Below, piece after piece: positions 3,821-53,814 of a stretch of 64,000 nt of DNA. The DNA is taken from NCBI GenBank assembly GCA_963827165.1, contig CAWGZR010000005.1, positions 704,001 through 768,000 of the forward strand. The letters run 5' to 3'. Source of the DNA: Candidatus Bathyarchaeota archaeon (GTDB lineage Archaea > Thermoproteota > Bathyarchaeia > Bathyarchaeales > Bathycorpusculaceae). The notes under the pieces are model-generated. The model searched no databases. It saw nothing but the letters and a program-made list of their open reading frames with translations, and had not been told where the DNA came from. A program made the position numbers and the translations under genes. The first letter of the stretch is position 1, and each line of letters starts with the position of its first letter.

Positions 3821-5116
3821 TTAGTTTGGCGCGAATTCCCAGGCAATGTTGCCTTTCCAGATTTCGCCCAGCTTCGTTATCCTGACTTCTTTGTCGTCGA
3901 TTTCGATTAGTCCTTTGTCTTTCAGCTTTTGGAGTTGCTTAGGGAAAACTTTCTCAGGGGTTGTGCCAAATTTTTCCATAAACTCTTTTTTGCTAACTGG
4001 CAGCCGGAGGTATAACCGCGTCATCGTTCGCCTCATCATATCCTCAGTTGTGGATTCTGAAAGCCTGCTTATAGGCAGTTTTCCGGTTTTCACAGTTGAC
4101 ATATAATCATTTATGTTTTCTAAGTTAGAGTAAGAAAACTGTTGCAGATACCCCATAAAGCAGCCCGCCCCAGTCGTCAAAATGCCTCCCCAAGGCCAAC
4201 CGTTAAGACAGTTCTCGCGCATGTGCCACTCGACCCTGCTGAAGCGGTCGTGCCCAACTGCTTTGTAGCCTGCAGCTGTCAGCATGTTGTAGGCAGTTAG
4301 GTACATCTGTTTCTCGTATTCGGCATCTCCTGTGGGCGGTGAAACGCCTGTTTTAATCATTTTTTCAAGTGTGGTGCCGGGATCCACATGTAAAGAGTAA
4401 GCGTCAACTTCCACGTCAAGCTCAATTGTTTTCTTCAGGGTGTCTATCCAGCTTTCCATCGTTTGCCCAGGAAGGTTATACATAAGATCAACGCAGACGC
4501 ATAAATCTAGTTTCCTCGCGTGCCGAATTGCTTTTTCAACATCTGCCGCTGAATCAGGCAGGCAAAGCAGCTTGCGCAGCTTGTCATCAAAAGTTTGGGC
4601 TCCCATGTCCATCTGGTAGACTCCGTACTCGGCGAGTTTATTGATTTTTGGGAGTGCAAGGGTCTTTGAGGAACCTGTGACTTTGATGAAGTATTCTTCG
4701 TTGATGTTGAAGTTTTCTTTGCAGAAGTCGATGAGGTCAATCATCTGCTCAGCCGCTAAGACGCTTGGCGTTCCTCCGCCTAAGACGATTTCGTCGAAGC
4801 AGCTGGTCTGCACATATTTAGTTTTCGCGTACATTGCGAGCTCTTTTTTCAGCAAATCAAGGTATGGCTCAATCTTCACTTTGGAAGTGGCTGTGGTTGG
4901 GAAATAACAAAAAGCGCATCTAGAGTCGCACACGGATATCCACGGCTGGAGCTCCATAAGCCTGCCTGACTTGTTTTCAGTGTTAAGGAACTCCATGAAG
5001 GCATGGTAAGTTTCGGGTTTTATTTCTGGGTAATCCCTGTATGTGTAGGGCGGCCAGTTTTCTCGAGTATCGTACCCGCCGGATTTCCCTTCTTTGAGTG
5101 CAACAGCTTTAGTCAT
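3821..5116 (-). CDS. HemN/HemW-like (class C-type) radical SAM protein
   Basis: CDSRCAFC motif, 'LGGGTPS', 'GAQTFDD', 'DLMYNLPGQT', HemN_C-like tail 'RITKLGEIW'. Confidence 0.8.
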   Translation of the reverse strand: MTKAVALKEGKSGGYDTRENWPPYTYRDYPEIKPETYHAFMEFLNTENKSGRLMELQPWISVCDSRCAFCYFPTTATSKVKIEPYLDLLKKELAMYAKTKYVQTSCFDEIVLGGGTPSVLAAEQMIDLIDFCKENFNINEEYFIKVTGSSKTLALPKINKLAEYGVYQMDMGAQTFDDKLRKLLCLPDSAADVEKAIRHARKLDLCVCVDLMYNLPGQTMESWIDTLKKTIELDVEVDAYSLHVDPGTTLEKMIKTGVSPPTGDAEYEKQMYLTAYNMLTAAGYKAVGHDRFSRVEWHMRENCLNGWPWGGILTTGAGCFMGYLQQFSYSNLENINDYMSTVKTGKLPISRLSESTTEDMMRRTMTRLYLRLPVSKKEFMEKFGTTPEKVFPKQLQKLKDKGLIEIDDKEVRITKLGEIWKGNIAWEFAPN

Positions 5117-5252
5117 CCAAATTCCCCGCGAATTTACTTTTAGAACGGCTCAGAAACATAATAAACATATCGTTAAAACATATCGATTGAATGCGGAATC
5201 CAAAAAAAGCACCTTTTATCTTTAATAGAAAATTTTTTCTCTCGTGGGCTAA

Positions 5253-6653
5253 TTATTTTTTGCTCATGGTTCGCATGATGATGTAATTTGCGGCGGTTCG
5301 AGCCATAATTTTGCTGTACACGCTGCCCCGCAGATACCCTTTTACGGCTTGGCGAAGGAAGTACTTGATTGAGTAGAACTTATTGTAGAAATCCTGCCTT
5401 TCTTTAAGCACTATTTCAGCGGGCAGATTAGGATCTTCAAAGATCGCGTTCATCGTGTTGTAACGGTTCCAGTCATTGGTCATCTTCCACCCATAGCTCT
5501 GAACCAAAGCCCGAAGCTCAGTTCCTGGGTAAGGTGTGGGAATATTTAGCCAAACGCTATCGGGTTCCACTCTTCGGACAAAATCAAGGCTTTCCGTAAG
5601 AGTTTCCCGTGTTTCACCTGGATAGCCCAGAATTATAGAGACGGTGGTAAATATTCCCGCTTCTTTAGACCATTTGATGGCGTTTTCGCACTGTTCAGTG
5701 GTGACTTTCTTCTTCAGGGAGTCGCGGATTCTTTGGCATCCTGATTCTACGCCGAAGCAGATTTCGTCGCAGCCGGCCTTATGCATCTTAGCGAGCAGCT
5801 CTTTTGTCGTTACGTCTGCCCGGGTTCCACAGCCCCATTTCAAATTTACCTTGCGCTCAATCATTCCATCGCAGATATCGATCGCTCTTTTCTTATCGAA
5901 GGAAAAAGTGTCATCTTGAAACTGAATTCCCTCTGCTCCATACTCGTTTTTGAGCCATCCAATTTCGTCAAGAACGTTGCCAGCGCTTCTTGCACGGAAT
6001 GTTCTGCCAAACATTTCGGACGCAACGCAAAAGCTGCATTGGAAGGGGCATCCCCTGCTTGAGATTATCGGCAATATCCTTTTTCCGTTGATTCGGTATT
6101 TTTCGATTGGAATCTGTTTGTAGTCTGGGCGTGGCAGCGCATCTAGGTTTTGGATGAACGGTCGGGTTGGCGCTTGCACGATTTGTTTGTCTTTTCGGTA
6201 AGTTATGCCTTTGATATTGTCTATGTTTTGTAGCTGGGGTTGCTTTGCGAGTTCCAGAAGGGTTTCTTCTCCTTCGCCTCTTACGATGACGTCAACTACG
6301 CTTTCTTGAGTAAGGATTTCTTTGTCTTGGAAGGTCGCGTGTGGTCCACCCATAACGATTTTAGCGTCAGGACAGGCTTCCTTTGCGGCGTAAGCGGTTT
6401 TGAGAGCTGACTCAAAAGTCTGCGTCATCGCGCCGACCCCGACTATGGTGGGTTGGTAAACGCTTAGTTCCTTTTTGAGGTTCTCATGGTCTATGCCGTA
6501 TATGGGGCAATCAAAGACTTTTACATCAAAATTGTTCTGCTCCAGCACAGCCGCCATATATGCCAAGCCAAGCGGTGCGAAAAGCGGGTGATCGCCTGCT
6601 CCTTCGAGGAGCGGTGTATTAACGAGCGCTATCTTGGGCTTGTTTGTTGTCAT
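5253..6653 (-). CDS. Cobalamin-binding (class B) radical SAM protein #1
   Basis: B12-binding N-domain 'PLGLAYMAAVL...GGPHAT...GEGE'; 'SRGCPFQCSFC', 'GVESG', 'TPYPGT'. Confidence 0.92.
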   Translation of the reverse strand: MTTNKPKIALVNTPLLEGAGDHPLFAPLGLAYMAAVLEQNNFDVKVFDCPIYGIDHENLKKELSVYQPTIVGVGAMTQTFESALKTAYAAKEACPDAKIVMGGPHATFQDKEILTQESVVDVIVRGEGEETLLELAKQPQLQNIDNIKGITYRKDKQIVQAPTRPFIQNLDALPRPDYKQIPIEKYRINGKRILPIISSRGCPFQCSFCVASEMFGRTFRARSAGNVLDEIGWLKNEYGAEGIQFQDDTFSFDKKRAIDICDGMIERKVNLKWGCGTRADVTTKELLAKMHKAGCDEICFGVESGCQRIRDSLKKKVTTEQCENAIKWSKEAGIFTTVSIILGYPGETRETLTESLDFVRRVEPDSVWLNIPTPYPGTELRALVQSYGWKMTNDWNRYNTMNAIFEDPNLPAEIVLKERQDFYNKFYSIKYFLRQAVKGYLRGSVYSKIMARTAANYIIMRTMSKK

Positions 6654-6844: not shown

Positions 6845-7588
6845 TTGCGAGTTGCTTCAATGTGGACTGGCGGCAAAGATAGCTACTTAGCTTGCTCAGG
6901 CGCCGTCTCCGAAGGAAACAACGTTACCACACTCATAAACTTCGTATTCAAAGAACCTCCACATCCTAAACCCAATAGAATCAAAAGTTTGGCGGGTTCG
7001 GTTTTGATGAAGCTGTCTGGGATGAAGCCCTACAAGGATGTTCCGCATGAAGTTAACCCCGAAATCATCGCGTTGCAGGCGAAGGCGTTGGGTTTGCCGA
7101 TTGTGCAGCCAGAAGTTTCGATGATGGAGTTCGTTGACAAATTTAAGGCAACGATCAGTAGCCTGAAGCCGACTGTTGAGGGAATCGCTTGGGGTGCCGA
7201 GGAGGATCAAGCCGCCGTTCACATGTCGATGCTTACCCCTATCTGCGAAGAGCTAAAGGTAAAAATGATTTTTCCGCTCAAAGGCATCGGCGAAGACGCA
7301 AACATTGAGACTTTCACTCGGAAAGGTTATGAAGCAACCGTAATCGTTGTTGACACTGACTTTTTGAGTGAAGATTGGCTTGGACACGAAGTCGACGCCA
7401 ACTTCTTGGAGCAGATCCGCAACAAAAGCAAGGAAACAGGCACGGCGGTAAGCAACATCGAGTTCCACACGCTCGTCACCGATGCCCCTCTTTTCAGGAA
7501 ACGCCTCAGAATCGTTGAAAGCCGTAAGATCAAACGGAAAGGGTTCGCGGTGCTCGACATAACCAAAGCTGAACTTATCGAAAAATAA
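6845..7588 (+). CDS. DUF71/Dph6 (diphthine-ammonia ligase family) PP-loop ATP pyrophosphatase, divergent paralog A
   Basis: 'WTGGKDS' PP-loop and 'EFHTLVTDAPLF'; lacks the canonical DPCGEGG segment. Confidence 0.8.
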   Translation: MRVASMWTGGKDSYLACSGAVSEGNNVTTLINFVFKEPPHPKPNRIKSLAGSVLMKLSGMKPYKDVPHEVNPEIIALQAKALGLPIVQPEVSMMEFVDKFKATISSLKPTVEGIAWGAEEDQAAVHMSMLTPICEELKVKMIFPLKGIGEDANIETFTRKGYEATVIVVDTDFLSEDWLGHEVDANFLEQIRNKSKETGTAVSNIEFHTLVTDAPLFRKRLRIVESRKIKRKGFAVLDITKAELIEK

Positions 7589-7638
7589 GTCACTTCAGAA
7601 TAAGATTGCCCGAAAACCTGAGCGGGTTTTGGAGCGGC

Positions 7639-9885
7639 TCATCTAATTTTTCTTTTGAGTCGTCTTGCCGTCAAAAATACAACCAAAGCAGCGATTACCG
7701 CCAAAACCAAAAAAACAGCGATTTCGGAGACCGGTTCTGCCGTTGCGGGTTTTGCTGTTGATGCAGGTCCAAAAGCGTAGAGCATATTGTTGTATGAGCC
7801 CACGTATACGGCACTGTCGGCTGCGGCTGGTGAGGAGACAACCATTTCGCCTGTGGCGTAGCTCCAGATTTCTTTGCCGTTTTGTGCGTTGAGGGCATAG
7901 ACGTCGCCGTCGTAGGAGCCAACGTAAACAGCACCGCCTGAGACTGCAGGCGACGACGCTACTTGCCCGCCGGTCAGGAAGCTCCACGCGAGTTTGCCAT
8001 CCGACGCCTGCAAAGCGTAAACTTTCCCGTCTCCTGACCCCACATAAATCAGGCCGGCCGCCACGGCAGGGGACGAAGCAACCCCCGCATCCGTGGCGAA
8101 TTCCCAGACGAGTTTGCCGTCGGAGGCTCGCAGGGCATAGACGTTGTGGTCGTAAGAGCCAATGTACACGACGCCGTCTGCTACTGCGGGCGACGAAACC
8201 ACGTAGCCCCCTGTTGCGTAGTTCCAGATGATGGAACCGTCGGAGGCATTGAGGCAGTAGACGTTATTATCGTTTGAGCCGACATAGACTCTGCCGTCGT
8301 TGACTGCGGGTGAGGAAACCGTGATTTGACCGTTTGTAGTATAGTGCCATATGAGTGTGCCGTCCGATGCGTTTAAGGCGTATATGCTGCCGTCTTCTGA
8401 ACCCACATACATGACGCCACCCTGTACGGTGGGAGAAGAAACCACTGGGCCGCCTGTTTTGAAGCTCCAAACCTTGATGCCTGTGGCAGCATCGAGTGCG
8501 TAAACATTGCCGTCGTAAGAGCCCACATACACGATGCCATCCGCAACCGCAGGAGATGAAAACATCACCATGTCGCCCGTAGCGTAGCTCCACACCACGT
8601 TGTTATGCATTTCCACGTTGAATCCAACCATACCGGTCGAAGCGTTCAAAGCGTATACGACGCCATCATGCGAACCCACATAAACCAGCCCGTCTGCTAC
8701 TGTTGGAGAAGAGTCTATTTCACCCCCTGTTGCGTAGCTCCAAACGTAGCCGCCCGTCGTAGCATTCAATGTATATAGTTTCCCGTCCCAGCAGCCAACG
8801 TAAACCCTGCCGTCGGCCACTTCGGGACGCGAAATAACCATGTCACCCGTCACGTAGGTCCACAGCAAACTGCCGCCGGAGGCATCAAGCGCATATACTC
8901 TGCTGTTCTCCGATCCCACATAAACTGTGTCGCCCGCCACCGAAGGGGAAGAAGCTACAGCTGCACTTGTTGAGAAACTCCAAATTTTGGCGCCGGTTTC
9001 TGCGTTTAGGGCGTAGACCTTGTCGTCGGTTGACCCAATGTAGACAGTGCCTCCGCTGATACAGGGCGAAGAATAGATTGCTCCGCCCGTCGTGAAGTTC
9101 CAAATCTGTTTGCCAGAGGAGGCTTCCAAAGCGTAGATTTTTCCGTCGTCGGAACCAGCGTAGACCACGCCTGACTGTACCGCGGGTGAAGAAACCACTT
9201 GGCTGCCCGTTGAGTAGGTCCAGATGAGGGCTCCGTTAACGGCGTTGAGAGCGTAGATTTTGCCGTCTTCCGACCCGATGTACAAGGTTCCGTTGCTGAC
9301 CGCAGGCGACGACAACATGATTTTGTAGCCCGTGCTGAAGTTCCACGCCAACCTGCCTGTTTGGGCGTTTAGGGCGTAAACATTGTGGTCTTCCGAGCCG
9401 AAGTACACGTTTCCGTAGGCGACGGCTGGGTCACAGTCAACGTAGTTTCCTGTCGCGAAGTTCCAAAGTTTTGCGCCGTTGGTTGCGTTGAGTGCATAGA
9501 GGTTGTGGTCTTCGCTGCCAACATACACCCTGCCTTCTGAGACTGCGGGTTGGGAAATCACGATGCCGCCCGTCGTAGACGCCCAGATGACAGCGCCGCT
9601 TAGGGCATCGAATGCGTAGATGTTATGGTCAAAAGAACCTACGTACACGACGCCGCCGACTACAGTGGGTGAATCCATTTGGCCGCCCGTGTTGAACTTC
9701 CAAAGTGTCTGATTCGTCGCAGGCGCCGAAGAATCTCCACTGCCTGTGTGAGCGGGATTACCGTGAAACATGGGCCACCCAGCTGCACTGACTTGGCTCT
9801 GGGCTGCTCCCAAAATGGCTGCGGCTAAAAACAGCGTAGACAGAACAAAAACAAACGTGGCGGCTGCTTTCATTTCTGTTTCCAT
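7639..9885 (-). CDS. Secreted, C-terminally anchored PQQ-like beta-propeller repeat protein (16 repeats)
   Basis: Signal peptide, 'WPMFHGNPAHTG' cap, 16 repeats of W..xTG...SSPxV..G.VYVGS.D..YALNA, C-terminal TM followed by a basic tail. Confidence 0.9.
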   Translation of the reverse strand: METEMKAAATFVFVLSTLFLAAAILGAAQSQVSAAGWPMFHGNPAHTGSGDSSAPATNQTLWKFNTGGQMDSPTVVGGVVYVGSFDHNIYAFDALSGAVIWASTTGGIVISQPAVSEGRVYVGSEDHNLYALNATNGAKLWNFATGNYVDCDPAVAYGNVYFGSEDHNVYALNAQTGRLAWNFSTGYKIMLSSPAVSNGTLYIGSEDGKIYALNAVNGALIWTYSTGSQVVSSPAVQSGVVYAGSDDGKIYALEASSGKQIWNFTTGGAIYSSPCISGGTVYIGSTDDKVYALNAETGAKIWSFSTSAAVASSPSVAGDTVYVGSENSRVYALDASGGSLLWTYVTGDMVISRPEVADGRVYVGCWDGKLYTLNATTGGYVWSYATGGEIDSSPTVADGLVYVGSHDGVVYALNASTGMVGFNVEMHNNVVWSYATGDMVMFSSPAVADGIVYVGSYDGNVYALDAATGIKVWSFKTGGPVVSSPTVQGGVMYVGSEDGSIYALNASDGTLIWHYTTNGQITVSSPAVNDGRVYVGSNDNNVYCLNASDGSIIWNYATGGYVVSSPAVADGVVYIGSYDHNVYALRASDGKLVWEFATDAGVASSPAVAAGLIYVGSGDGKVYALQASDGKLAWSFLTGGQVASSPAVSGGAVYVGSYDGDVYALNAQNGKEIWSYATGEMVVSSPAAADSAVYVGSYNNMLYAFGPASTAKPATAEPVSEIAVFLVLAVIAALVVFLTARRLKRKIR

Positions 9886-9942: not shown

Positions 9943-11040
9943 CTACTTTTTGCGAAGGCTTTCAGGAATGTAAACACAAGCGGGGTCCTCAGCATACATG
10001 TCGCCTGTGTAAGCGTACGCGCGGTTTCTGCATCCCCCGCAGAGCTCACGGTATTCGCAGACTCCGCATTTGCCCTTGAGTAGGTTGCGGTCTTGGAAGC
10101 TGCTGTAGAACGGTGAGGACTTAACATCTTTCCAAGCGTCCTGCAGCGATTTGTTTCGAATGTTGCCCAGCCTCTGGTGTTCGGTGGGTGTGAGGTCGGT
10201 GTAGAAGCATGGGATAAGGTCGCCATTCTCCGTGACTGAAACGTAGCCGCCGAAAGCGAAGTAGGTGCATTTGCCGTGGAATTTGTGCTCGTACCATTTA
10301 TCGAAGTTTGGGATGCCGCGCATTTTGACGACGCGGGCGAAGTGGGGGCAATGGACATGGATTTCGAATTTGCCCTCATATTTTTCGGTGAGGTCCCAAA
10401 TGTGGTTGAGCACCCACTCATACTGTTCGGCCGAAGGGGTGAGGTCAGCCATTTCCTTGGCTCTTCCACTGGGAACAAGATGGTTAAACCAGACGAAGTT
10501 CGCGTGATACTTCTCCGCCAACTCGCAAACATGGTCGAGATGCTGATAATTTATGGTAGTTATGGCGCAGGCTAACCCGTTGAGGATTTTGCCCTTGCTG
10601 AGTTTGTCAATGGCGGCCAAGGCCTTGCGGTAGCTGCCTTTGCCCCGAAGTTGGTCATTGATTTCTTCGGGTCCGTCGATACTAACGCTGGTCCAGATTT
10701 GGTCCCTCACCAGGTTGTCATAGATTGAACCATCGACAAAAGTGCCGTTAGTAAGAAGGCAGACGTTGAGACCTTTGCTCTTGGCATATTTGGTGATTTC
10801 AAAGATGTCTGGGCGCGTAAGCGGTTCTCCCCCTTTTATGCCGAACCAGCGGACGCCGAATTCTGACACTTCATCCACAAGGTGGAATGCTTCTTGAGTT
10901 GTGAGTTCCCTGGGGGCTTTGGCGCCTGTGGCGTCAACGTTGCAGTATTTGCAACGGGCATTACATGCACCTGTTGCCCTCCAAGAAGTCATAAGCAAAG
11001 GACCCTTACTCGTCAAACAAAAACCCTCTCTTTCTCGCAA
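9943..11040 (-). CDS. Radical SAM/SPASM-domain protein (NirJ/Ahb/PqqE-like superfamily)
   Basis: CNARCKYC, 'GGEPL'; SPASM cysteines 'PCF...CGVCEYRELCGGCR...DPAC'. Confidence 0.88.
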   Translation of the reverse strand: MREREGFCLTSKGPLLMTSWRATGACNARCKYCNVDATGAKAPRELTTQEAFHLVDEVSEFGVRWFGIKGGEPLTRPDIFEITKYAKSKGLNVCLLTNGTFVDGSIYDNLVRDQIWTSVSIDGPEEINDQLRGKGSYRKALAAIDKLSKGKILNGLACAITTINYQHLDHVCELAEKYHANFVWFNHLVPSGRAKEMADLTPSAEQYEWVLNHIWDLTEKYEGKFEIHVHCPHFARVVKMRGIPNFDKWYEHKFHGKCTYFAFGGYVSVTENGDLIPCFYTDLTPTEHQRLGNIRNKSLQDAWKDVKSSPFYSSFQDRNLLKGKCGVCEYRELCGGCRNRAYAYTGDMYAEDPACVYIPESLRKK

Positions 11041-38078: not shown

Positions 38079-38080
38079 CC

Positions 38081-41216: not shown

Positions 41217-41220
41217 TTGT

Positions 41221-45148: not shown

Positions 45149-46035
45149 TGGCTGCTCCCGCCCCGGCCAGAGGGCTAATCGCTCTTCTGAGGCTCCCCTA
45201 CTGGCTGATGACAGGCGGCTTATCTCTACTAACCGCGTTCGCAATCGCAAAAAACCCCGCGAACCTAAGCGCACAAACTATTCTGCTGATTTTCTTTTCA
45301 ATGGCATTCATCACGTCGGCGGGCTTCGCGATAAACGATTATTTCGACCGAGAAAGTGACGCCCTTATCAAGCCGAAACGTCCCATACCGTCGGGGGCCT
45401 TATCTTTGAAGCAGGTGATGGCTGTTTCAGGCGTTTTGTTCGCTGCTGGATTAGCTATGTCCTTTTTCATTAACTGGTTAAGTTTCGCAATAATCGCAGC
45501 AGACTCTGCTTTGCTTCTAGTTTACTCAACGCTTGTTAAACGCAAGTCAGGGTTCGCAGCCAACGTTATGGTTGGGATTTTGACGGGCACAGCTTTTATG
45601 TACGGCGAAGCCACAATATCGAGTCCTCCAGCAGTAACCATAATCTCCTTAAGTCTTTACCCCATAGCTCTGGGCACTATCGGCGGCAACGTACTTCGCG
45701 ATGTGCTAAGTCTTGACGGCGACCGAAAAACTGGTTACCCCACACTTCCACAGAAAATCGGCATCGGCAATTCGGCGAAGGCTGCCGCTGGGTTATTCCT
45801 GTTGACCGGTTTGCTTGCGCCTTTGCCTTTTTTCGTAGGCAACTTTAACTTTTACTATTTGATACCCATCGTGGCTTGGAGTGTCCTCTTAATCTACTCG
45901 TCTGTTCGTCTAGTTACCGCTGCTTCAACCGTTGCAAACGTGAGAAAATATGAACGAATAGTAACTATGTCGATGATTCTGCTCCCGCTAGCGTTGATTC
46001 TTCAGGCGGCATCCCACTTGATCGGAGGGCTGTAA
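45148..46035 (+). CDS. UbiA-family prenyltransferase, DGGGP synthase-like
   Basis: 'INDYFDRESD...KPKRPIPSG', about 8 TM helices, second motif 'RDVLSLDGD..GYPTLP'. Confidence 0.82.
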   Translation: MAAPAPARGLIALLRLPYWLMTGGLSLLTAFAIAKNPANLSAQTILLIFFSMAFITSAGFAINDYFDRESDALIKPKRPIPSGALSLKQVMAVSGVLFAAGLAMSFFINWLSFAIIAADSALLLVYSTLVKRKSGFAANVMVGILTGTAFMYGEATISSPPAVTIISLSLYPIALGTIGGNVLRDVLSLDGDRKTGYPTLPQKIGIGNSAKAAAGLFLLTGLLAPLPFFVGNFNFYYLIPIVAWSVLLIYSSVRLVTAASTVANVRKYERIVTMSMILLPLALILQAASHLIGGL

Positions 46036-47508
46036 GTGAGCGAAACCAAAAGCATCTGCCCAGAATGCCAGAAAAAAATAGACGCCCAACTACGGCAAGC
46101 CAACGGTAAAATAAAAATCACCAAGCATTGCCCAGAACACGGCGAATTCGAAGCTACACACTGGCAAAGCACACCCGTCTTTAATCACATGCAAACCTAC
46201 GATCAATTTCAGTACCTGGGAGATTTAAACGCTTCAAAAAACCCTGAAGGTTGCCCCTACGTCTGCGAAACTTGCAACAAGCATGCTTCAGGAACAGTTA
46301 TTGGAGTAATCGACGTGACGAAACGTTGCAACCTTCGTTGCGCAATCTGCTTCTCAACATTTCCCGAGCAAGGTAACGATTACGAGCCAACCAAGGAACA
46401 TCTCATAAAAATGCTTGAGTTCGTGAGCCAAGCAAACCCCAAGCCTCCTGCCATTCTGTTTTCAGGCGGAGAACCCCTTGAACGCGAGGACATGCCCGAA
46501 ATTGTCGGCGCCGCCCACAGACTAAAGTTCATGACTATTCTAGCAACCAACGGGACTCATTTGGTTGACACCCCGGGGCTAGCAAAGAAGCTCAAAGACA
46601 AAGGCTTGAACATTGTTTATTTGTCATTTGACAGCTTCCATGACGATTTTAACAAGAAGATTAGAGGAAAGGCGCTGCTTGAGGAAAAACTCAAAGCAAT
46701 AGAGGTTTGCCGCAAGCATGACATGGAAATCATCTTGGTTAATACGTTGATGAAAAGTCTTAACGATAAGGAAGTTGGCGACATGATACGGTTCGCCGCT
46801 AAAAACACGGACATAGTGCGGGGCTTAATCTTCCAGCCAATAGCCTTCACCGGTAGAGCCACGGAGAACCCTTTCCGCGAAAACTTCCGCGAATGGTCCT
46901 TTGCCGAAGACGTTGAAAAACAAACAGGCGGCGAAATCAAAGCAACCGATTTGTATCCCATGTCAGTTATGACGTCGCCGATCAAGATAATGCGAAAATT
47001 CATGAAAAAGCCTTGGCCCCTGTTTTCATGCAGCCCGCAGTGTGGAATTGTAAACTGGATTTACGTTTCTAAAGAGGGCAAAATGTTCCCTATCAACCGG
47101 TTTGTCAACTTTGATCGTTTCTTCTCAACCATTAGAAAAACTGCCGAGTCCGCCGAATCCAAAGGCAAACTCTCGCTGCTCTCTTCACTGTTTATGGCGT
47201 CTATGCTTTCGATGGATATGCTTCTTGTGACGCAAGAAGTGGGTATGCTTACGCTCCTGAATTCGATCATGCGTATGCATCTTTCACCTTCATATCAGTC
47301 ACTTGGCAAAATCCGAAGAAGAATCTTTCTTTTGGGCTGCATGGCTTTTATGGATTCATATAATTTCGATGTAAACCGCGTAAGACGCTGTGTAGTCCAC
47401 TACATTACACCAGACCTGAAAATCATACCTTTCTGCGCCTACAACAATATCCACCGGGTGGCAATCGAAAAAGAATATGCGGAAAAGCAAAAGAAAACTC
47501 AAGCTTGA
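46036..47508 (+). CDS. tes: Tetraether lipid synthase Tes / GDGT-MAS (MJ0619-family radical SAM)
   Basis: N-terminal 'CPEC...CPEH', 'GCPYVCETC..H', 'DVTKRCNLRCAIC', 'SCSPQCG', C-terminal 'FMDSYNFDV.RV.RC.VHY..PD..IIPFC.YN'. Confidence 0.8.
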   Translation: MSETKSICPECQKKIDAQLRQANGKIKITKHCPEHGEFEATHWQSTPVFNHMQTYDQFQYLGDLNASKNPEGCPYVCETCNKHASGTVIGVIDVTKRCNLRCAICFSTFPEQGNDYEPTKEHLIKMLEFVSQANPKPPAILFSGGEPLEREDMPEIVGAAHRLKFMTILATNGTHLVDTPGLAKKLKDKGLNIVYLSFDSFHDDFNKKIRGKALLEEKLKAIEVCRKHDMEIILVNTLMKSLNDKEVGDMIRFAAKNTDIVRGLIFQPIAFTGRATENPFRENFREWSFAEDVEKQTGGEIKATDLYPMSVMTSPIKIMRKFMKKPWPLFSCSPQCGIVNWIYVSKEGKMFPINRFVNFDRFFSTIRKTAESAESKGKLSLLSSLFMASMLSMDMLLVTQEVGMLTLLNSIMRMHLSPSYQSLGKIRRRIFLLGCMAFMDSYNFDVNRVRRCVVHYITPDLKIIPFCAYNNIHRVAIEKEYAEKQKKTQA

Positions 47509-48029
47509 TTTGTAACTTGAATTGGCAAAACGCAGTAGTCATACGTAAACTGGTATGTGCCGCCATCGGCGGGGTTGAATGTGTACAGTTCAAAAACAAC
47601 CCAGTAGCTGCCGACCTGATTCTCTGTGACTGTGATTGACTGATGCCAGCTTGCTCCATTCTTTAGCGTCATGTTGCATGTTTCGGCGGCTGGGGCGTTC
47701 ACTGGAAAAGAGTTAAGATTCGGGGTTATTTTCACCAAAACTTGGTACTGAACGGTCCAACCCATGTTGTTAACGACGGTTAATGGGACGGTAAAGGTGC
47801 TATTCTGATTGGCGACTAAAAGCTGTGGGTAATTCGCCGCTTTATTTTGTGCGTCAAGCAGGTAAATCGTGCTGTATCCTTCAGGCGCCGGCTTAAAGAT
47901 AACGTAGTAGCCGACAAGCATAGATGAGATGATGATCAAGGCGAGAGCGATGGCGACTAAGTAGCCTTTGTCATCGTTTAAGCCGATTTTCTCTCCAATG
48001 CTTTTGACACGTTCTAACTGTATCCGCAT
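47499..48029 (-). CDS. DUF1616-like membrane-anchored protein
   Basis: N-terminal TM, 'EGYSTIYLLD...A.NYP', 'VFELY'; start uncertain. Confidence 0.6.
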   Translation of the reverse strand: MRIQLERVKSIGEKIGLNDDKGYLVAIALALIIISSMLVGYYVIFKPAPEGYSTIYLLDAQNKAANYPQLLVANQNSTFTVPLTVVNNMGWTVQYQVLVKITPNLNSFPVNAPAAETCNMTLKNGASWHQSITVTENQVGSYWVVFELYTFNPADGGTYQFTYDYCVLPIQVTNQA

Positions 48030-48708
48030 CTAAAAATCCCTTGAATATAGTGCTAAATATTTCTATGCCTGACTTAAATGGTTTAAGTTTGGTCTTCCCA
48101 TATTTGCGCGGTTTGTAAGTCGTGGGGATTTCAACCATATTGTATCCGACTTTGGCGAATTGGACCAGCATTTCGGTGGCAAACGCCATGTCTCCTTCTA
48201 CCAATGGAACGTTGTCGATGCATTCATGTGATATTGCCCTGAACCCTGATTGGGTGTCGCTCAGTAGTTGGCTGTAAAAGAAGTCGTAGACCAAGGTTAT
48301 GATTTTGTTTCCGATAAAATTCGTGAATCCCATGGCTTTTTTCGGGTCAAACATGCGAGTGGCTAAAACCATGTCTGCGTCTTTCTCAAGCATTCTTTCA
48401 ACCAAGCGGTTGATGTGTTTGACCTCGTAGGTTCCGTCGCCGTCAACCATGACTATTATGTTTCCCTTCGCGTTTTTCATACCTGTTCGAAGTGCTATTC
48501 CGTAACCGCGTCTTGGCTCGAGAATTAGCCTGCAAAAACCTGTGTCTTTAATGAGCTCCATTGTCCCGTCTGTAGAGTTGCCGTCGACGACGATGATTTC
48601 GTTTGGGTAAGCTAGCTCTTTGTGGATGGTGTTTACTGCTTCAAGTATGTTTCCTGCCTCGTTGAGTGTCGGAATGACTACCGAAACCAATTCGACTTTT
48701 GATGTCAT
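47971..48708 (-). CDS. GT2 glycosyltransferase (DPM1-like)
   Basis: 'VIPTLNE', 'VDGNSTDGT', 'RGYG.AL', 'VDGDGTY', 'DTQSGFRA'. Confidence 0.9.
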   Translation of the reverse strand: MTSKVELVSVVIPTLNEAGNILEAVNTIHKELAYPNEIIVVDGNSTDGTMELIKDTGFCRLILEPRRGYGIALRTGMKNAKGNIIVMVDGDGTYEVKHINRLVERMLEKDADMVLATRMFDPKKAMGFTNFIGNKIITLVYDFFYSQLLSDTQSGFRAISHECIDNVPLVEGDMAFATEMLVQFAKVGYNMVEIPTTYKPRKYGKTKLKPFKSGIEIFSTIFKGFLDADTVRTCQKHWRENRLKR

Positions 48709-48751
48709 GGCTAACTCCTATCTTGAAGGCTATACTGTTTTCGCATCATGA

Positions 48752-49909
48752 TTAAATAAGCTCTTCGTATATTTCCACGAGAGATTCAACGTTTCGCTCC
48801 CAGCTATACTTTTCTTCCACCGCTGCTCGAAGCTCCAACCCACACGAGGATAACTCAGCATGGGAATATTCTAAGACTGCCCTAGCCATTGGCTCCGGCT
48901 GATTAGGCGGCACCAAAGTCCCACAATTTTCCATCAGAATTTCCCTTATTCCACCAACGTCTGTAGCTACAACCGGCAAGCCACATGCCATGGCTTCAAG
49001 CGCAACCAAAGGCAAGCCTTCCCCAGATTTTGACGGCAACACAAAGAAGTCAGCCGCGTTATAGCAAAGGGGCAAATCAACGTCGCTGACAAAACCCGTC
49101 AACCGAAAATTATTTTCTATTCCCAGTTGCCGAATTCTTTCTTGAACCCCCTTTTGGTCTGGTCCCTTTCCAACAACAAGGAAAACCAAATTAGGATTCT
49201 TCTTGACTGCAAGGTTCGCGCTTTCAATCAATGTGTCGATGCCGTTCTTGTAAACAAGTCTCCTCACCGTTAAGGCCACAACCGCGTTTTTGGGCATCCT
49301 AAATTTAATTCTCATTTCTTCGCGTTTTCCTGGCAGATGCCTGAAATGGCGCAGGTCCACCCCGTTGTGGATGACTTTGATTTTGTTTGGTTTTGCACCT
49401 AAACCAAGAACGTACTGTTTGGTTGCGTTACTTACAGCGATGATTCTGTCTGCTTCTCTTAGCGTCTCTTTCCCCACAGATAGGTCGTTTAGGCGTTCCA
49501 CGTTGTCGAACATATTGTCGTACTGGATGAACGTGTTGTGCTGGGTCAAAACGAACGGTTTGTTGTATCCTTTTGCAAGTTTAGCAGCGATCAACGAGGT
49601 CAAATATGGGTGGCCGTGTGCGTGGACTATGTCGGCTGCGTTTACGGCTTTAAGGAAAGTTTGTAGGCTTGTCGGGGTCGGGATAGAGTAAGGTATGCCG
49701 AGGCGGAATCCGGTGTTTAACGATTCATAGCACTGGACGTCTATGCCATCAACGGTGTAAGTTTTGGGGGTGTTGATGCGGTTGGTCACAACCATGGGCT
49801 TAAAGTTTAGGTTCATCAGCCGCTTGCTCTGTTCATAAACAACCTTTTCAATCCCGCCAACATGAGGCAGAAAAGTATGCGTAACAATGCATAAACTTGT
49901 TTGAACCAT
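48752..49909 (-). CDS. GT4 (GT-B) glycosyltransferase
   Basis: 'PHVGGIE', 'HNGVD', 'KNG', 'EGLPLVALEAMACGLPVV'; ATG 49909 preferred. Confidence 0.9.
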   Translation of the reverse strand: MVQTSLCIVTHTFLPHVGGIEKVVYEQSKRLMNLNFKPMVVTNRINTPKTYTVDGIDVQCYESLNTGFRLGIPYSIPTPTSLQTFLKAVNAADIVHAHGHPYLTSLIAAKLAKGYNKPFVLTQHNTFIQYDNMFDNVERLNDLSVGKETLREADRIIAVSNATKQYVLGLGAKPNKIKVIHNGVDLRHFRHLPGKREEMRIKFRMPKNAVVALTVRRLVYKNGIDTLIESANLAVKKNPNLVFLVVGKGPDQKGVQERIRQLGIENNFRLTGFVSDVDLPLCYNAADFFVLPSKSGEGLPLVALEAMACGLPVVATDVGGIREILMENCGTLVPPNQPEPMARAVLEYSHAELSSCGLELRAAVEEKYSWERNVESLVEIYEELI

Positions 49910-50636
49910 GGAGCCCAACTGCGTAACCTCCACAACCAACATACGATAATAAGCCTTATGGTAAATCCCCAACCAAGCGCGGAAGATAGAAAAATTTCAG
50001 ACTGAAGTGTCTAACCAAGAAACGGGCGTTCTGAAGCCAATGTTTATAAAACTCTTGGAAGGTGACTAATATTAAATCCGTAATTCGTTTCATGAGCGTA
50101 AATTGAACCTGGATGTTCAAAATTTCATTTTATTCGCTCTTGATGGGGCTTGAATCGGGGTTGAATTTGTAAAATATTGCCAAACTGCGCCTTTATCTTA
50201 CGAAAAAGTGAACTTGTGCACCATGGTTTTGTGGTGACTTTGAACTTGGGTGACGTTGATTTGCAGTGAAAACGCGGTAACTTGACTACGTTCGTAAAAG
50301 TGGTCTGAGTTGAGAGATTGCGCCGCCTTAAAATCGTTTTCAACAGCCACTCAGATGTGAACCGCTGACTAAATAGTAATGCTTATATGAAAAGGTTGGA
50401 TAAACCAACCAGTCGTGGGCTGAATAATTTGTTGAACATCGAGAAAAGACCGTTTGTCCCAATCAACTTTCTAACAACTGACCGATTATCTGGATGTTTG
50501 ATGGCTAAAACCCCGTTTTGTTGCCCAAATTGTTCTGAGATTAACACTTCAAATCATTTGCAGTTTACATTCACTTGGACCCAACGAAGAACAGAAGGTA
50601 AATCGTGAAAGAATATTTAGGGAGGAAGAAATTAAA

Positions 50637-51323
50637 ATGAAAGTTGTTGCGGCTTGGAGCGGCGGAAAAGACAGCGCCTATGCAGAGTACTTGGCAACCC
50701 AGCGGGGCCTCGAAGTAGTCAACATTTTGACCATGATGATGAGCAAGGAAAAATCAAACTTCCACATGATACCCGCAGAGATTCTGGATGCACAGTCAGA
50801 CGCCATAGGCATCCCCATAGTGAAGCAGCAAGCCACCCCAAAAACATACGAAGATGACTTCAAAGCTGCGCTGCGGCGTTTCAAAACTGACGGCGCCGAA
50901 GGCTTGGTGACAGGTGACATCTACGAGGTAGCTGGACACGAACAGGGTTGGCTGGGCAGAGTGCTCAAAGAAGTCGGTTTACAACCGATAAAGCCGCTGT
51001 GGATGCTTGACACGAAGCAGATTTACCTTGACTACCTGAAAACAGGGTTTAAGGCAACAGTGGTTAGAACCAACCTGGAGAAGCTGGGCGTAGAGTGGCT
51101 TGGGCGGGTGCTTGACAGAAAATTCTATGACGACATCCTCAAACTCGGCAACGTTGATCCGTGCGGCGAAGGCGGCGAATACCACACTGTTGTGACAGAT
51201 GGACCGACATTTAAGAAAAAGATTGAAATTCTAGAAACACAAAGACACAAGCTAGACAGCGGCTTCGGATACCTCGAAATCAAAAAGTTCGAAGTCAAGC
51301 CGAAAGGCAAGGTAAAACCGTAG
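50637..51323 (+). CDS. DUF71/Dph6-family ATP pyrophosphatase paralog D (canonical motifs), first gene of the cobT-cobS-cobY operon
   Basis: 'WSGGKDS', 'FH', 'TGDI', 'PLW', 'DPCGEGGEYHT.V.DGP.F'; GGAGG RBS. Confidence 0.9.
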   Translation: MKVVAAWSGGKDSAYAEYLATQRGLEVVNILTMMMSKEKSNFHMIPAEILDAQSDAIGIPIVKQQATPKTYEDDFKAALRRFKTDGAEGLVTGDIYEVAGHEQGWLGRVLKEVGLQPIKPLWMLDTKQIYLDYLKTGFKATVVRTNLEKLGVEWLGRVLDRKFYDDILKLGNVDPCGEGGEYHTVVTDGPTFKKKIEILETQRHKLDSGFGYLEIKKFEVKPKGKVKP

Positions 51324-51324
51324 A

Positions 51325-52425
51325 ATGGACCAATCACTCGATGTAATAATTGCCAATAATGAGCTGAAAGCGAAGGCTTTTCTGGATGAAGTGGCAGGCA
51401 AAAACCCACTTTTCATATGCACAATCGGCACCACGGAAACCGGCAAAATCGCAGGGATATCTGCGGCTGGAGCAAACCCCGAGTTCACGGACTACACTCC
51501 GCCAGCCGATGCTGAACTGCTTCTCTTAGGCAAATGCAAATCCATCAACGGTGTTCCTATAACTCCAGACGGAATCCCCACGCCTGGGTTGATCACGAGG
51601 TCGGCTTTGCAACTCGCTAACATTCCCGTGCTCATAGCCAGCGGCGGGGTAAAGGTGAAGCCTCAGATTCCTTTTTTGGATTTGGGTGGAAATCCAGGAA
51701 GGGACATTCGAAGCGGCAATGCAGTTGACAATGTTGCGGAAGTTATTGAACGCGCTAAAGTTGCTGGACAAAACCTGGCAAAAGCCGTGGATTACCTTGT
51801 GATTGGCGAAAGCATTCCAGGCGGAACAACAACCGCGCTTGGCGTCTTATCTGCTCTGGGAGTGAAAGCAGAAGGAAAAGTAAGCAGCACGCTACCTCAA
51901 AATCCTCACAGTTTGAAGGCTGAAACGGTTCGGTCGGGTTTGACAGCTGCAGGCGAAGATTTCGGCACTTTAGCGAAGGATCCTATTCGGGCTATTTCCT
52001 GTGTTGGCGACCCCATGATGGCGGCCTTTACGGGTTTGGTTATTGGGGCATCAAGTCAGGTTCCTGTTTTGATGGCGGGTGGCACTCAGATGAGCGCTGT
52101 CTTGGCCCTGATTAACGCTTTGGAACCCGATGTTCTGTGCAACGTGGCTGTGGGCACAACTCGCTGGGTTGCGAAGGACAAGTCATCTGACCTTAAAGGA
52201 ATTGTGAAGCAGTTCTGCGACGTGCCGATTTTGGCGGCTGACCTTAACTTTTCAGAATCCCGTTTTCCAGGCTTACAAATCTATGAGACGGGTCTAGTCA
52301 AAGAAGGGGTCGGCGCAGGCGGAGCTTCTATCGCTGCGATGGCGAAGCTTGGTGGCGCTGTAACGGCTGACCTATTGCTTAAAGAGATAGAGCGCAATTA
52401 TGGTTCGCTTATGGGTTTGAAGTGA
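51325..52425 (+). CDS. cobT: Archaeal-type nicotinate-nucleotide:benzimidazole phosphoribosyltransferase CobT (TIGR00303-like)
   Basis: 'GTTETGKIAGISAAG...YTPPADAE', 'PTPGLIT', 'GESIPGGTTTAL', 'AGGTQM', 'VKEGVGAGG'. Confidence 0.88.
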   Translation: MDQSLDVIIANNELKAKAFLDEVAGKNPLFICTIGTTETGKIAGISAAGANPEFTDYTPPADAELLLLGKCKSINGVPITPDGIPTPGLITRSALQLANIPVLIASGGVKVKPQIPFLDLGGNPGRDIRSGNAVDNVAEVIERAKVAGQNLAKAVDYLVIGESIPGGTTTALGVLSALGVKAEGKVSSTLPQNPHSLKAETVRSGLTAAGEDFGTLAKDPIRAISCVGDPMMAAFTGLVIGASSQVPVLMAGGTQMSAVLALINALEPDVLCNVAVGTTRWVAKDKSSDLKGIVKQFCDVPILAADLNFSESRFPGLQIYETGLVKEGVGAGGASIAAMAKLGGAVTADLLLKEIERNYGSLMGLK

Positions 52426-52426
52426 G

Positions 52427-53200
52427 ATGGCTATTAAAGAGCTCAAGAACCTGCTGTCTTTCCTCACAATCTTTCCCGTTGCAATGGACAAGGATATGCT
52501 TACTGACTGCGCAAAAGATATGTGGGCTTTTCCGCTGATCGGCTCTTTCATCGGTTTGATTGCCGGCGTTTTCGGTTGGGTTGCTGGCCAGTTTGTTCAC
52601 GGCTTAGTCATCGGCGGCTTAGTTTTGGCAGCTCTTTTGCTAATAACTGGGCTTCATCACACAGACGGGCTTCTTGATTTCGGCGACGGCGTCATGGCTC
52701 ACGGCACACCCGAACACAAGATTGCGGTCATGCATGACCAACTAACAGGCGCAGGCGGCTTATCCATGGGCATCATGACTATGCTTATCGCAGCCTTAGC
52801 CATCGGGCAATTAAGTGGCAATGGGCTTTTCAAAATTCCCCTGATAATCGGCGGCATCATCGCAGTTGAGGCTTCTGCGAAACTTTCGATGGTCGTTATG
52901 GCTTGGGCTGGAAAATCTGTTCATCAAGGCATGAACTCGTCTTTTCTTGAAGCCATGAGTGGAAGCAAAGGCACCTTGCGCTTGGTTGCTGCCGTTGCTA
53001 TCTCTTTCGCTGTTGCTTTGCCTTTCCTGGGCTGGGCGGGCGCTTTCGTTGTCTTAGCCGGCGTGATTACTAGTTTGGTGATGGTTGCGGTTGCCCACCG
53101 GCACTTCGGCGGGGTCACGGGTGACGTTTTCGGTGCCACAAACGAGATAACCCGAATGGTATGCGTTATCGTTTTGCTGGCGGTGGTTGCTTGGGTATAG
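52427..53200 (+). CDS. cobS: Adenosylcobinamide-GDP ribazoletransferase CobS, canonical copy
   Basis: 'SFLTIFP', 'TGLHHTDGLLDFGDG', 'MHD..TG..G', 'FGGVTGDVFGATNE'. Confidence 0.9.
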   Translation: MAIKELKNLLSFLTIFPVAMDKDMLTDCAKDMWAFPLIGSFIGLIAGVFGWVAGQFVHGLVIGGLVLAALLLITGLHHTDGLLDFGDGVMAHGTPEHKIAVMHDQLTGAGGLSMGIMTMLIAALAIGQLSGNGLFKIPLIIGGIIAVEASAKLSMVVMAWAGKSVHQGMNSSFLEAMSGSKGTLRLVAAVAISFAVALPFLGWAGAFVVLAGVITSLVMVAVAHRHFGGVTGDVFGATNEITRMVCVIVLLAVVAWV

Positions 53201-53814
53201 CCGCTCTTGTGATGGCTGGGGGAAAAGGGACCCGCATGCAAATCCAAGAAGAAAAACCCCTCATACGAGTCTGCGGAAAACCTGTTATAGAATACGTAAT
53301 TGCAGCATTGCAAAACGCCCAAAAAATTGACTGCATCTTCGTGGCAACAAGCGCTTGTACGCCTAAAACCGCCAAATACCTGAACGGATTTTCAGTTAAA
53401 GTGCTTGATACCCCCGGGAAAGACTATGTTTCGGATATGGGCTACGCGAGCCAAAACTTGAAACTGGGCGTTTTCGTGGCTATTGCGGCTGATTTGCCTC
53501 TTGTCACGAGCGAAGTGGTCGACACTATCGTTGAACGATATGAATGCTGCGGCAAACCCGCTCTTACCGTCGCGGTCCCCCTGGAAACAAAGAGGCGGCT
53601 TGGGATGTGTGTCGAGTACTCTTTTAAAATGGATGACAAAGATGTCGTTCCCGTTGGCATCAACGTTATTGACGGGCGCAAGAGGTACGGTGACGAGTGG
53701 CTTGATCAAGACATCTACCTGCTTGATCTGGACGAATTAGCCATCAACATTAACACAGTAAAGGAACTGCAGCTTGCCGAAAATTTTTTGGCTGAGCGAA
53801 AAACTTGTTTCTAG
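53191..53814 (+). CDS. cobY: Adenosylcobinamide-phosphate guanylyltransferase CobY, copy 2
   Basis: 'MAGGKGTRM...EKPL', 'GKDYVSD', 'ADLPL', 'PVGINVI', 'NINT'; TTG start overlapping the cobS stop. Confidence 0.85.
   Translation: MGIAALVMAGGKGTRMQIQEEKPLIRVCGKPVIEYVIAALQNAQKIDCIFVATSACTPKTAKYLNGFSVKVLDTPGKDYVSDMGYASQNLKLGVFVAIAADLPLVTSEVVDTIVERYECCGKPALTVAVPLETKRRLGMCVEYSFKMDDKDVVPVGINVIDGRKRYGDEWLDQDIYLLDLDELAININTVKELQLAENFLAERKTCF

Follow-up and report, generated by a model that had tools for sequence, protein, structure and literature searches.

What would a Bathyarchaeial archaeon make with twelve radical S-adenosylmethionine (rSAM) enzymes set among genes for tetraether lipids and cobamides? 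The question is raised by a 64-kb window (the whole stretch analysed, positions 704,001 to 768,000 of contig CAWGZR010000005.1) from the Candidatus Bathyarchaeota archaeon assembly GCA_963827165.1, in which an island at 3821..53814 holds these genes. Here, the island is found to be part of a conserved Bathyarchaeial supercluster that probably makes and tailors a glycolipid of the glycerol monoalkyl glycerol tetraether (GMGT) type and carries its own genes for cobamide salvage and assembly. Enzymes of the Tes, Gms, Gmm, Grs, Cds and Ted kinds have been described before, and the locus is a variant arrangement of known kinds.

The gene inventory is based on the open reading frame (ORF) listing of the window and on Pfam and NCBIfam searches of it, and coordinates are window positions unless prefixed by a contig (C4, C5, C9). 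A preliminary description of this DNA had counted eight B12-binding rSAMs, two SPASM rSAMs, one HemN-like rSAM, a Tes homologue, a UbiA prenyltransferase, five glycosyltransferases (GTs), an epimerase of the short-chain dehydrogenase/reductase (SDR) type, a class I methyltransferase, four DUF71 proteins and cbiB, cobD, cobT, two cobY and two cobS, and Pfam and NCBIfam place every one of them where it had been put. The CX3CX2C motif is kept in all 12 window rSAMs and in two more rSAMs upstream. The strongest lipid marker of the locus, a Gms-like protein, had been missed.

The bounds of the island enclose the content ascribed to it, but its left limit does not stand, as the cluster continues beyond the left end of the window. 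There, C5:692-704 kb holds CbiZ, a ninth B12-binding rSAM (53% identical to B12-rSAM 4 below), MtrH and its corrinoid protein, and the third SPASM rSAM, again AhbD-like. The whole arrangement, from these upstream genes to the cobT operon, takes about 60 kb. Nor is it free of interrupting genes as had been claimed; three PQQ-like beta-propeller genes, an Amidohydro_3 gene, a tandem Lrp/AsnC regulator, DUF362, DUF4234 and DUF1616 sit between.

The host genome has 3.13 Mb and is 94.5% complete. It gives 16 matches to the B12-binding domain PF02310, 13 of which are long frames above cut-off, yet 9 of the 13 lie inside C5:694,748-738,107, that is, in 43 kb or 1.4% of the genome. This clustering is far from chance, but its members are paralogous and hence not independent events.

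Gms-like protein and the Tes2 operon

The putative lipid genes proper lie in the right half of the island.

41221..42654 (-): Gms-like (GMGT synthase-like) SPASM rSAM, 477 aa, found by the AhbD model, with an N-terminal extension
40266..41324 (-): DUF362 protein; in this taxonomic order, it always follows the Gms-like gene (Pfam, synteny)
44210..45148 (+): SDR epimerase/dehydratase, first gene of the SDR-UbiA-Tes2 operon (Pfam, NCBIfam)
45148..46035 (+): UbiA prenyltransferase paralogue resembling digeranylgeranylglyceryl phosphate (DGGGP) synthase (NCBIfam, below cut-offs)
46036..47508 (+): Tes2, divergent tetraether synthase paralogue (NF045702)

The 477-aa SPASM rSAM beside cobS and cobY has, as judged from its sequence, the architecture of GMGT synthase (Gms). 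The AhbD model TIGR04545 covers its residues 118-467 only, at 313.7 bits against a cut-off of 500, and the SPASM domain PF13186 is present. The N-terminal extension of about 117 aa can be aligned across 19 homologues from across Thermoproteota, and the other SPASM proteins, SPASM_1 and the upstream one, lack it. In Garcia et al. 2024 (PMC11214058), Gms is a SPASM/Twitch-class homologue of AhbD that is longer by 100 aa at its N terminus. The DUF362 ORF as listed begins with GTG and shares about 100 nt with the 3′ end of the Gms-like gene, so its translation probably starts further downstream.

Searched at E <= 1e-60, the Gms-like protein has matches in 151 of the 301 sampled Thermoproteota genomes. 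Many of them are full-length with 40-49% identity, extension included, and the AhbD-type partial ones start at residue ~114. Among named archaea, homologues occur in Archaeoglobus sp. (44%), Ca. Methanosuratincola (46%), Methanobrevibacter acididurans (41%), Thermoproteus sp. (40%) and Thermococcus sp. (45%). The last, from a metagenome-assembled genome (MAG), was the proxy for the characterised Thermococcales Gms and aligns over residues 38-470 with a tblastn E of 2e-123, a value relative to the candidates only; the published survey took E <= 1e-80 as its Gms homology threshold (PMC11214058). The 120 matches listed in a search for homologous proteins are all 77-91% identical and Bathyarchaeia-type, and bear generic names only.

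In the window, no more than 36 kb separate the Gms-like gene from Tes2 and from any of the eight B12-rSAMs. According to Garcia et al. 2024 (PMC11214058), gms and gmm cluster in archaea, and gms with tes in bacteria. Two samplings of distant loci show a B12-rSAM as the immediate neighbour of the gms homologue in 5 of 18 and 10 of 63 cases, and a Tes-like gene adjoins that homologue in 4 of the 63.

The Tes homologue reported beside UbiA is indeed there, but it is not the sole or canonical Tes of the organism. Two Tes-family genes of the genome pass the NF045702 cut-off of 450 bits, Tes1 at C5:395589-397010 with 663.5 bits and Tes2 in the island with 463.3 (462.9 in the genome scan). They are 39-41% identical, and the canonical Tes1 lies 350 kb away. 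Thus, Tes2 is a second, divergent paralogue rather than an orthologue of the canonical Tes, and its coupling activity is predicted. Its residues 3-482 align with residues 24-505 of 7tol_A, the solved GDGT-MAS (Tes, MJ0619; PDB 7TOL), at E 8e-112, and it keeps the N-terminal Cys ribbon CxxC...CPEHG and both CX3CX2C motifs. In contrast to that full-length likeness with every Cys motif, Tes2 barely passes the model, is found in only two sampled families of the order and is always coupled to the DGGGPS-like UbiA and the SDR.

In 22 of the 24 same-genus genomes, Tes2 has an orthologue of 83-94% identity, fragmented in four of them, and the two genomes with none are 58% and 65% complete. Of 16 genomes sampled from other families of the order, G040 alone carries a gene of the Tes2 type (47%).

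In the operon, the SDR stop overlaps the UbiA start and Tes2 abuts UbiA in the ORF listing. UbiA prenyltransferases of this kind carry an Asp-rich NDxxDxxxD motif and a second Asp motif. Both are kept here; N63, D64, D67, D71 and D192 are invariant with respect to the G040 orthologue and another UbiA copy at C5:913307. Further UbiA-family genes elsewhere in the genome encode heme o synthase and a MenA-like protein.

Three short contigs from a peat RNA library match parts of the SDR (44271-44537), Tes2/DUF1616 and GT2 genes at 100% identity. The run, X1, holds only 0.06 of the sampled words, so that uncovered parts are uninformative. These contigs are a weak hint of expression, with DNA carry-over possible.

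Conservation of the cluster and its B12-rSAM paralogues

The arrays of B12-rSAMs lie within 70 kb of the Tes2/Gms core in seven of the eight genomes compared (G003, G014, G001, G012, G040, G333 and G334), so the synteny that the preliminary description had proposed as a check is largely there. Within the genus, the arrays are 10-70 kb from Tes2 in four of five genomes.

Among named MAGs (loci L022-L038), a shared core recurs, made up of GT4-GT2-DUF1616, Tes2-UbiA-SDR, CobS2-CobY2, Gms-DUF362 and GT4-GT2-GT2 blocks with DUF4234 and CobD, its Gms being 56-92% identical. It is flanked by B12-rSAM, methyltransferase, DUF71 or HemN-like genes. These loci include the Bathy-6 complete MAG (cMAG) CP170178.1 (Gms 76%) and Ca. 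Bathyarchaeum sp. bin115 (Gms 56%).

The fullest counterpart is in G040, of a different family in the same order, where about 62 kb (C1:425-487 kb of that genome) hold orthologues of almost every island and upstream gene. The order there begins with two unknown large proteins, CobS1, the corrinoid protein, MtrH, CbiZ, a CN-hydrolase and PQQ_2. It goes on with a SPASM rSAM, the HemN-like rSAM (65%), two B12-rSAMs, CbiB (58%), the amidohydrolase (49%) and SPASM_1, and then with four further B12-rSAMs (54-63%), the methyltransferase and Gms (56%). It ends with three GTs, DUF4234, CobD, CobY, CobS2, Tes2, UbiA, SDR, DUF1616 and GT4. The keeping of this gene content across families at 40-65% identity argues for functional coupling and is our main argument.

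The B12-rSAMs, the most numerous enzymes of the island, are as follows.

5253..6653 (-): B12-rSAM 1, subfamily A; PF02310 and PF04055; 52% orthologue in the G040 cluster
13905..15371 (-): B12-rSAM 2, subfamily A; PF02310 and Radical_SAM, tree
17979..19427 (-): B12-rSAM 3, subfamily C; 60% orthologue in G040; separate clade with C5:265604
20577..21986 (-): B12-rSAM 4, subfamily A; 63% orthologue in G040
27260..28636 (-): B12-rSAM 5, subfamily B; flanks CobD in L023, L024, L025, L032 and L035
29634..31118 (+): B12-rSAM 6, subfamily A; 62% orthologues in G040
31146..32516 (+): B12-rSAM 7, subfamily B; 54% orthologue in G040
32671..34107 (+): B12-rSAM 8, subfamily A; synteny in L022

All eight have the B12-binding and rSAM domains with CX3CX2C, and they form one paralogous family with 30-58% identity. 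Among NCBIfam models, they match BchE, HpnJ and ApyD best, with 200-250 bits where the cut-offs are 480-750.

Trees of 33 and 41 sequences (MAFFT and FastTree) put the gms-adjacent B12-rSAMs of distant archaea, which are putative Gmm, in one clade joined by the Methanobrevibacter homologue. Its neighbour is subfamily A, comprising B12-rSAMs 1, 2, 4, 6 and 8 and the upstream copy with a support of 0.995. Subfamily B (B12-rSAMs 5 and 7) and subfamily C (B12-rSAM 3 and its paralogue C5:265604) are further away. Each of the three subfamilies has orthologues in another family.

The relatedness that had been asked of these enzymes is thus found for the largest subfamily, which is nearest to the gms-adjacent B12-rSAMs; B12-rSAMs 1, 4, 6 and 8 are 34-39% identical to them at E 1e-87 to 1e-104, and the published survey used 1e-65 against Tg-Gmm as its Gmm threshold (PMC11214058). 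Garcia et al. 2024 (PMC11214058) also state that many Bathyarchaeota hold only "Gmm2"-clade homologues, in several copies, which fits the tree placement of the island paralogues. Hence, calling this an undescribed system was an overstatement, with Tes, Gms, Gmm and Ted already described and the multiple Gmm2-clade copies already noted. These genes could already be among those shown in the Gmm/Gms trees and datasets of Garcia 2024, or in Fig. S7/S10 and Table S4 of PMC11697101.

The island resembles the gms-gmm(-grs) clusters of Thermococcales and other archaea (PMC11214058), which likewise pair an AhbD-like SPASM rSAM having an N-terminal extension with B12-rSAMs of the same broad family. It differs in having no B12-rSAM of the gms-adjacent clade but 8-9 paralogues in three other subfamilies, and in the presence of Tes2, UbiA and SDR, five GTs and a second cobamide loop-assembly set, with no grs recognised in the window. 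Another relative is the Ted-Hgs-Grs locus of Ca. Bathyarchaeota B1_G15 (10.1101/2025.10.20.683597), where a Bathyarchaeial Gmm-like B12-rSAM does non-methylation chemistry on tetraethers; this homologue, Ted (locus tag DRO69_02625), acts as a desaturase. In contrast to that locus, Pfam finds no AttH-like gene in the window.

One Methanomassiliicoccus MAG (G332) was considered as a carrier of shared orthologues in support of a methylase for butanetriol dialkyl glycerol tetraethers (BDGTs). Its three long B12-rSAM frames match the island paralogues at 23-33% at best, too low to be specific, and we dropped this line. The same MAG has a small cluster of B12-rSAM, GT4 and GT2 genes at L114:931-4406 (-), 27-31% similar to the island B12-rSAMs and to GT4_a/GT2_a.

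Cobamide genes and other members of the cluster

The co-located B12 supply that had been proposed is borne out by the presence of the cobamide genes and turns out to be more specific than claimed. The island holds a divergent second loop-assembly set (CbiB2, CobD2, CobY2 and CobS2) together with CbiZ, the amidohydrolase and four DUF71 proteins.

19480..20475 (-): CbiB2, adenosylcobinamide-phosphate synthase, second copy; NF002281 276.8 bits versus 273; 58% orthologue in G040
35648..36760 (-): CobD2, threonine-phosphate decarboxylase-like, second copy; TIGR01140 278.7 versus 290.55; core member in L022-L038 and G040
42721..43344 (-): CobY2, MobA-like nucleotidyltransferase, second copy; 33% identical to CobY1
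43341..44171 (-): CobS2, cobalamin-5′-phosphate synthase-like, divergent second copy; TIGR00317 110.5 versus 110 (borderline); 35% identical to CobS1
50637..53814 (+): DUF71(B12-type)-CobT-CobS1-CobY1 operon; CobT TIGR00303 397.6 versus 240, CobS1 TIGR00317 151.9 versus 110
6845..7588 (+): DUF71 paralogue 1, DUF71-B12-like; PF01902; His at the E188 position; 92 bits versus the Dph6 cut-off of 197
28839..29576 (+): DUF71 paralogue 2 (Pfam, alignment)
34574..35305 (-): DUF71 paralogue 3; 93% orthologue beside B12-rSAM 8 in L022

Counterparts of two of these lie on C4 in a housekeeping context, where CbiB′ (330 versus 273) and CobD′ (304.4 versus 290.55) pass their cut-offs; CbiB2 and CobD2 are 43% and 37% identical to them. 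CobQ is located elsewhere in the genome. The DUF71-CobT-CobS1-CobY1 operon is kept in all five same-genus genomes, and in the same five the low-scoring CobS2 type lies within 3 kb of Tes2. Each of the 10 genomes searched, which come from both families, has both CobS types, the second match being partial in G325.

Could the second set be recruited lipid enzymes? A head-group activation and transfer system, in which CobY2, CobS2 and CobD2 would be analogous to CarS and a CDP-alcohol transferase, was considered and downgraded, as CbiB is also duplicated and conserved in the cluster. Because this corrin-specific step is duplicated too, the set points to real cobamide chemistry.

All four DUF71 proteins carry His where Dph6 has its catalytic E188 (an invariant H183 in the alignment), and His188 marks the DUF71-B12 subgroup with a predicted role in B12 salvage (de Crecy-Lagard et al. 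2012, PMC3541065). Their motif regions are EGGEYH (cobT operon), EPGEYH, EDGQGYH and SNIEFH, none being exactly ENGEF/YH. One copy adjoins cobT-cobS-cobY, and the others adjoin B12-rSAMs and cobD. Archaeal cobinamide salvage and loop assembly (PMC3541065) has its six functions CbiZ, CbiB, CobD, CobY, CobS and CobT and a His188-type DUF71 all present here too, whereas here additional divergent CbiB, CobD, CobY and CobS copies stand among lipid genes and four DUF71 paralogues replace one. Elsewhere in the genome, a high-scoring DUF71 frame at C5:357834-358500 is broken by TGA and TAG and may be a genuine Dph6, broken or mis-assembled, and a further copy, at C9:44846, reaches 160.9 of the 197.3 bits required for Dph6.

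The remaining members of the island and its right flank are listed here.

3821..5116 (-): HemN-like (class C type) rSAM; Radical_SAM and HemN_C; best NCBIfam match HutW, 188 bits versus 400
9943..11040 (-): SPASM_1, AhbD/NirJ-like SPASM rSAM with no N-terminal extension; TIGR04545 224 bits versus 500 over residues 17-359
26399..27259 (+): class I SAM methyltransferase; Methyltransf_11; 54% orthologue in the G040 cluster
37395..40269 (+): operon of GT2 (AglJ-like), GT2 and GT4; order conserved beside Gms/DUF362 in L022-L037 and G040
47499..49972 (-): DUF1616 fragment, GT2 (AglJ-like) and GT4; conserved beside Tes2 in L023, L024, L028, L038 and G040
36744..37298 (-): DUF4234 small membrane protein, conserved core member (Pfam, synteny)
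7639..9885 (-): PQQ-like beta-propeller protein, probably a bystander (Pfam; many genomic paralogues)
11307..13889 (+): PQQ-like beta-propeller protein (Pfam); 44% orthologue in the G040 cluster, L119:3348-6227
23579..26314 (+): large PQQ/Ig-like surface protein of a multi-copy family; weak (25%) counterpart at the same position in G040
15641..17290 (+): Amidohydro_3 metallohydrolase beside CbiB2 (Pfam); 49% orthologue adjacent to CbiB in G040
22061..23083 (-): tandem Lrp/AsnC-type regulator with two HTH_AsnC domains and a ligand domain
54765..57258 (-): CbiQ of the energy-coupling factor (ECF) type and two ABC ATPases (Pfam); possible right edge of the cluster

The HemN-like rSAM has orthologues inside the G040 cluster (65%) and beside Gms in L033 (49%), and SPASM_1 has them in the G040 cluster (53%) and L033 (48%). 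The tandem Lrp/AsnC protein was tried as a siroheme decarboxylase AhbA/B and rejected at 32 bits against cut-offs of 125-140. No Rfam family reaches its gathering threshold in the window, and no riboswitch was recognised there.

Several neighbours are recorded for completeness. Directly right of the cobT operon, a xylose-isomerase-like TIM barrel precedes the ECF-type CbiQ and the two ABC ATPases (53811-57258, -). Just left of the island, at 873-2273 (+), an RnfD/NqrB-like membrane protein is fused to a 2x[4Fe-4S] ferredoxin domain. The upstream MtrH-like methyltransferase and its 142-aa corrinoid protein (L001:12532-13891, -, equal to C5:696532-697891) adjoin CobS1 in G040 (L120) and may form a corrinoid methyl-transfer system of the type used for methoxylated aromatics. 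Next to them, at L001:14011-18743 (+), are two large proteins of 769 and 804 aa with no Pfam match, whose orthologues (29-33%) stand beside CobS1 in G040. On another contig, C4:128-136 kb (L122), nifH-nifB-nifD lie beside an Lrp regulator and cobQ, matching the nifHBDK arrangement reported for Bathy-6.

Proposed lipid tailoring and the competing readings

What pathway could these genes form? The DGGGP-synthase-like UbiA and Tes2 would make a diether that is then coupled tail to tail, and the Gms-like SPASM rSAM would cross-link both biphytanyl chains. The 8-9 Gmm-family class B rSAMs, in three old subfamilies, and the HemN-like rSAM would carry out lipid C-methylation and perhaps other radical changes such as Ted-like desaturation, and the SDR and the five GTs would produce sugar headgroups. 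On the cobamide side, CbiZ, the DUF71-B12 paralogues and the amidohydrolase may strip imported corrinoids, whose nucleotide loop would be rebuilt by CbiB2, CobD2, CobY2 and CobS2 together with the CobT-CobS1-CobY1 operon.

The lipid-tailoring role first proposed for the island agrees with the synteny, the relatedness of subfamily A and the Gms architecture, but does not extend with equal force to subfamilies B and C. These two are loosely placed with no specific tie to the Gmm clade, and deep-node supports in the trees are 0.2-0.8. This and the following facts weigh against the proposed pathway. None of the eight B12-rSAMs reaches any NCBIfam equivalog cut-off, none of the nine island paralogues falls inside the gms-adjacent clade by FastTree, and synteny and named relatives serve as proxies in the anchoring to Gmm, Ted, GrsA/B, Cds and Gms. 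Around the Gms homologue of the Thermococcus sp. MAG, no Gmm-like gene is found, and the only B12-rSAM match of that MAG is 25% identical. UbiA scores below the DGGGPS cut-offs (164.7 versus 269 for PRK12884 and 163 versus 296 for PRK12882), and the copy at C5:913307 scores better (249.8 and 190 bits). The AglJ-like GT2s and DUF1616 could instead serve protein glycosylation. In G008, the B12-rSAM array and Tes2 are on separate contigs, and gene order is rearranged within the genus. Every step of the pathway is drawn from homology and synteny, with predicted substrates and products.

The neighbourhood also conserves PQQ-propeller proteins, MtrH with its corrinoid protein and the two large unknown proteins, and these would suit a wider "B12 neighbourhood" no less than a lipid pathway. 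On that ground, one may suppose that the B12-rSAMs act on non-lipid substrates, such as lignin-derived or other recalcitrant organics, and that the Tes2/Gms/GT core is an unrelated neighbour. Bathy-6 is reported to have many B12-type rSAMs (7-20 per MAG), PQQ proteins and B12 loci, the rSAMs being linked to lignin together with the PQQ-domain proteins (PMC11697101), and both the loose position of subfamilies B and C and some of the distances agree with this; the array is 44-70 kb from Tes2 in G001, and a second B12 cluster lies 190 kb from Gms in G333. However, B12-rSAMs directly flank the Gms/GT/CobD core in 7 of the 17 close named loci, many of which are incomplete, and in G040 four of the six B12-rSAMs in the cluster are within 12 kb of Gms. 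Moreover, the nearest relatives found outside the order adjoin gms, and the PQQ-like beta-propeller/Ig-like family is dispersed genome-wide in more than 30 ORFs, one of which (PQQ_2) is kept inside the G040 cluster. We therefore regard the non-lipid role as unlikely.

The B12-rSAMs are interleaved with cbiB, cobD, DUF71 and cobT, which could mean that they and the class I methyltransferase modify the cobamide itself, as BzaC/D/E-like lower-ligand enzymes or as corrin-periphery methylases. The anaerobic benzimidazole pathway likewise has B12-rSAMs and a class I methyltransferase beside cobT, BzaCDE homologues are mentioned at the B12 locus of the Bathy-6 cMAG (PMC11697101), and all eight window enzymes match the BzaD model TIGR04385. 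However, they do so at 96.6-154.4 bits versus a cut-off of 450, the island proteins missing the Bza cut-offs by a factor of three, and no ThiC-family gene (BzaA/B/F) was found in the window or L001. Also, 8-9 paralogues in three old subfamilies far exceed the needs of the Bza pathway and are more similar to the gms-adjacent B12-rSAMs, so that such a role is very improbable. Even less can be said for peptide or protein maturation, in which the rSAMs would modify a ribosomally synthesised and post-translationally modified peptide (RiPP) or surface proteins such as the neighbouring propellers. SPASM rSAMs are common as peptide maturases, and partial matches to ApyD and other RiPP C-methyltransferase models, at 135-233 bits, rank among the best. 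Those scores are far under the cut-offs of 282-750, the SPASM proteins here are AhbD/Gms-like rather than peptide-maturase-like, and no precursor-like gene was recognised in the window, where small ORFs were not examined systematically; we consider this role remote.

Returning to the tetraether glycolipid pathway, a narrower form of it can be drawn, which is speculative and in our estimate quite improbable. One B12-rSAM subfamily would be the backbone C-methylase of butanetriol and pentanetriol tetraethers (BDGT/PDGT), Tes2 and UbiA would build a dedicated lipid, and the CbiB2-CobD2-CobY2-CobS2 line would make a cobamide of its own, differing in linker or lower ligand, for use by these lipid enzymes alone. 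Coffinet et al. 2020 are said to have found that the backbone methyl groups derive from methionine. A second family of the order, represented among named genomes here by Ca. Bathyarchaeum MAGs, has the cluster too and may hold the Bathy-8 lineage (Baizosediminiarchaeum). BDGTs are the reported biomarker of Baizosediminiarchaeum (PMC12694404, PMC13003381).

A literature search found no named BDGT-forming enzyme, Dong et al. 2025 lying outside its coverage and possibly naming one, and butanetriol and BDGT are absent from the main text of a 2026 review of lipid rSAMs. Likewise, no paper was found to describe a gms/tes cluster with cobamide genes, in a search that did not extend to supplements, so a prior description is possible.

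Bathyarchaeia are among the most abundant archaea of sediments, peat and soils, and GMGTs, methylated tetraethers and BDGTs serve as environmental proxies. The genes behind most Bathyarchaeial lipid modifications are still to be assigned, and the cluster supplies concrete candidates, namely Tes2 with UbiA, the Gms-like enzyme, the three B12-rSAM subfamilies and the HemN-like rSAM, all expressible in hosts that have served for Gms, Gmm and Ted. That one genome has two parallel sets for nucleotide-loop assembly, one of them among its client enzymes, is unusual and bears on cobamide specialisation. The "many B12-dependent rSAMs" of Bathy-6, so far tied to lignin, would then be re-read as largely lipid-tailoring enzymes.

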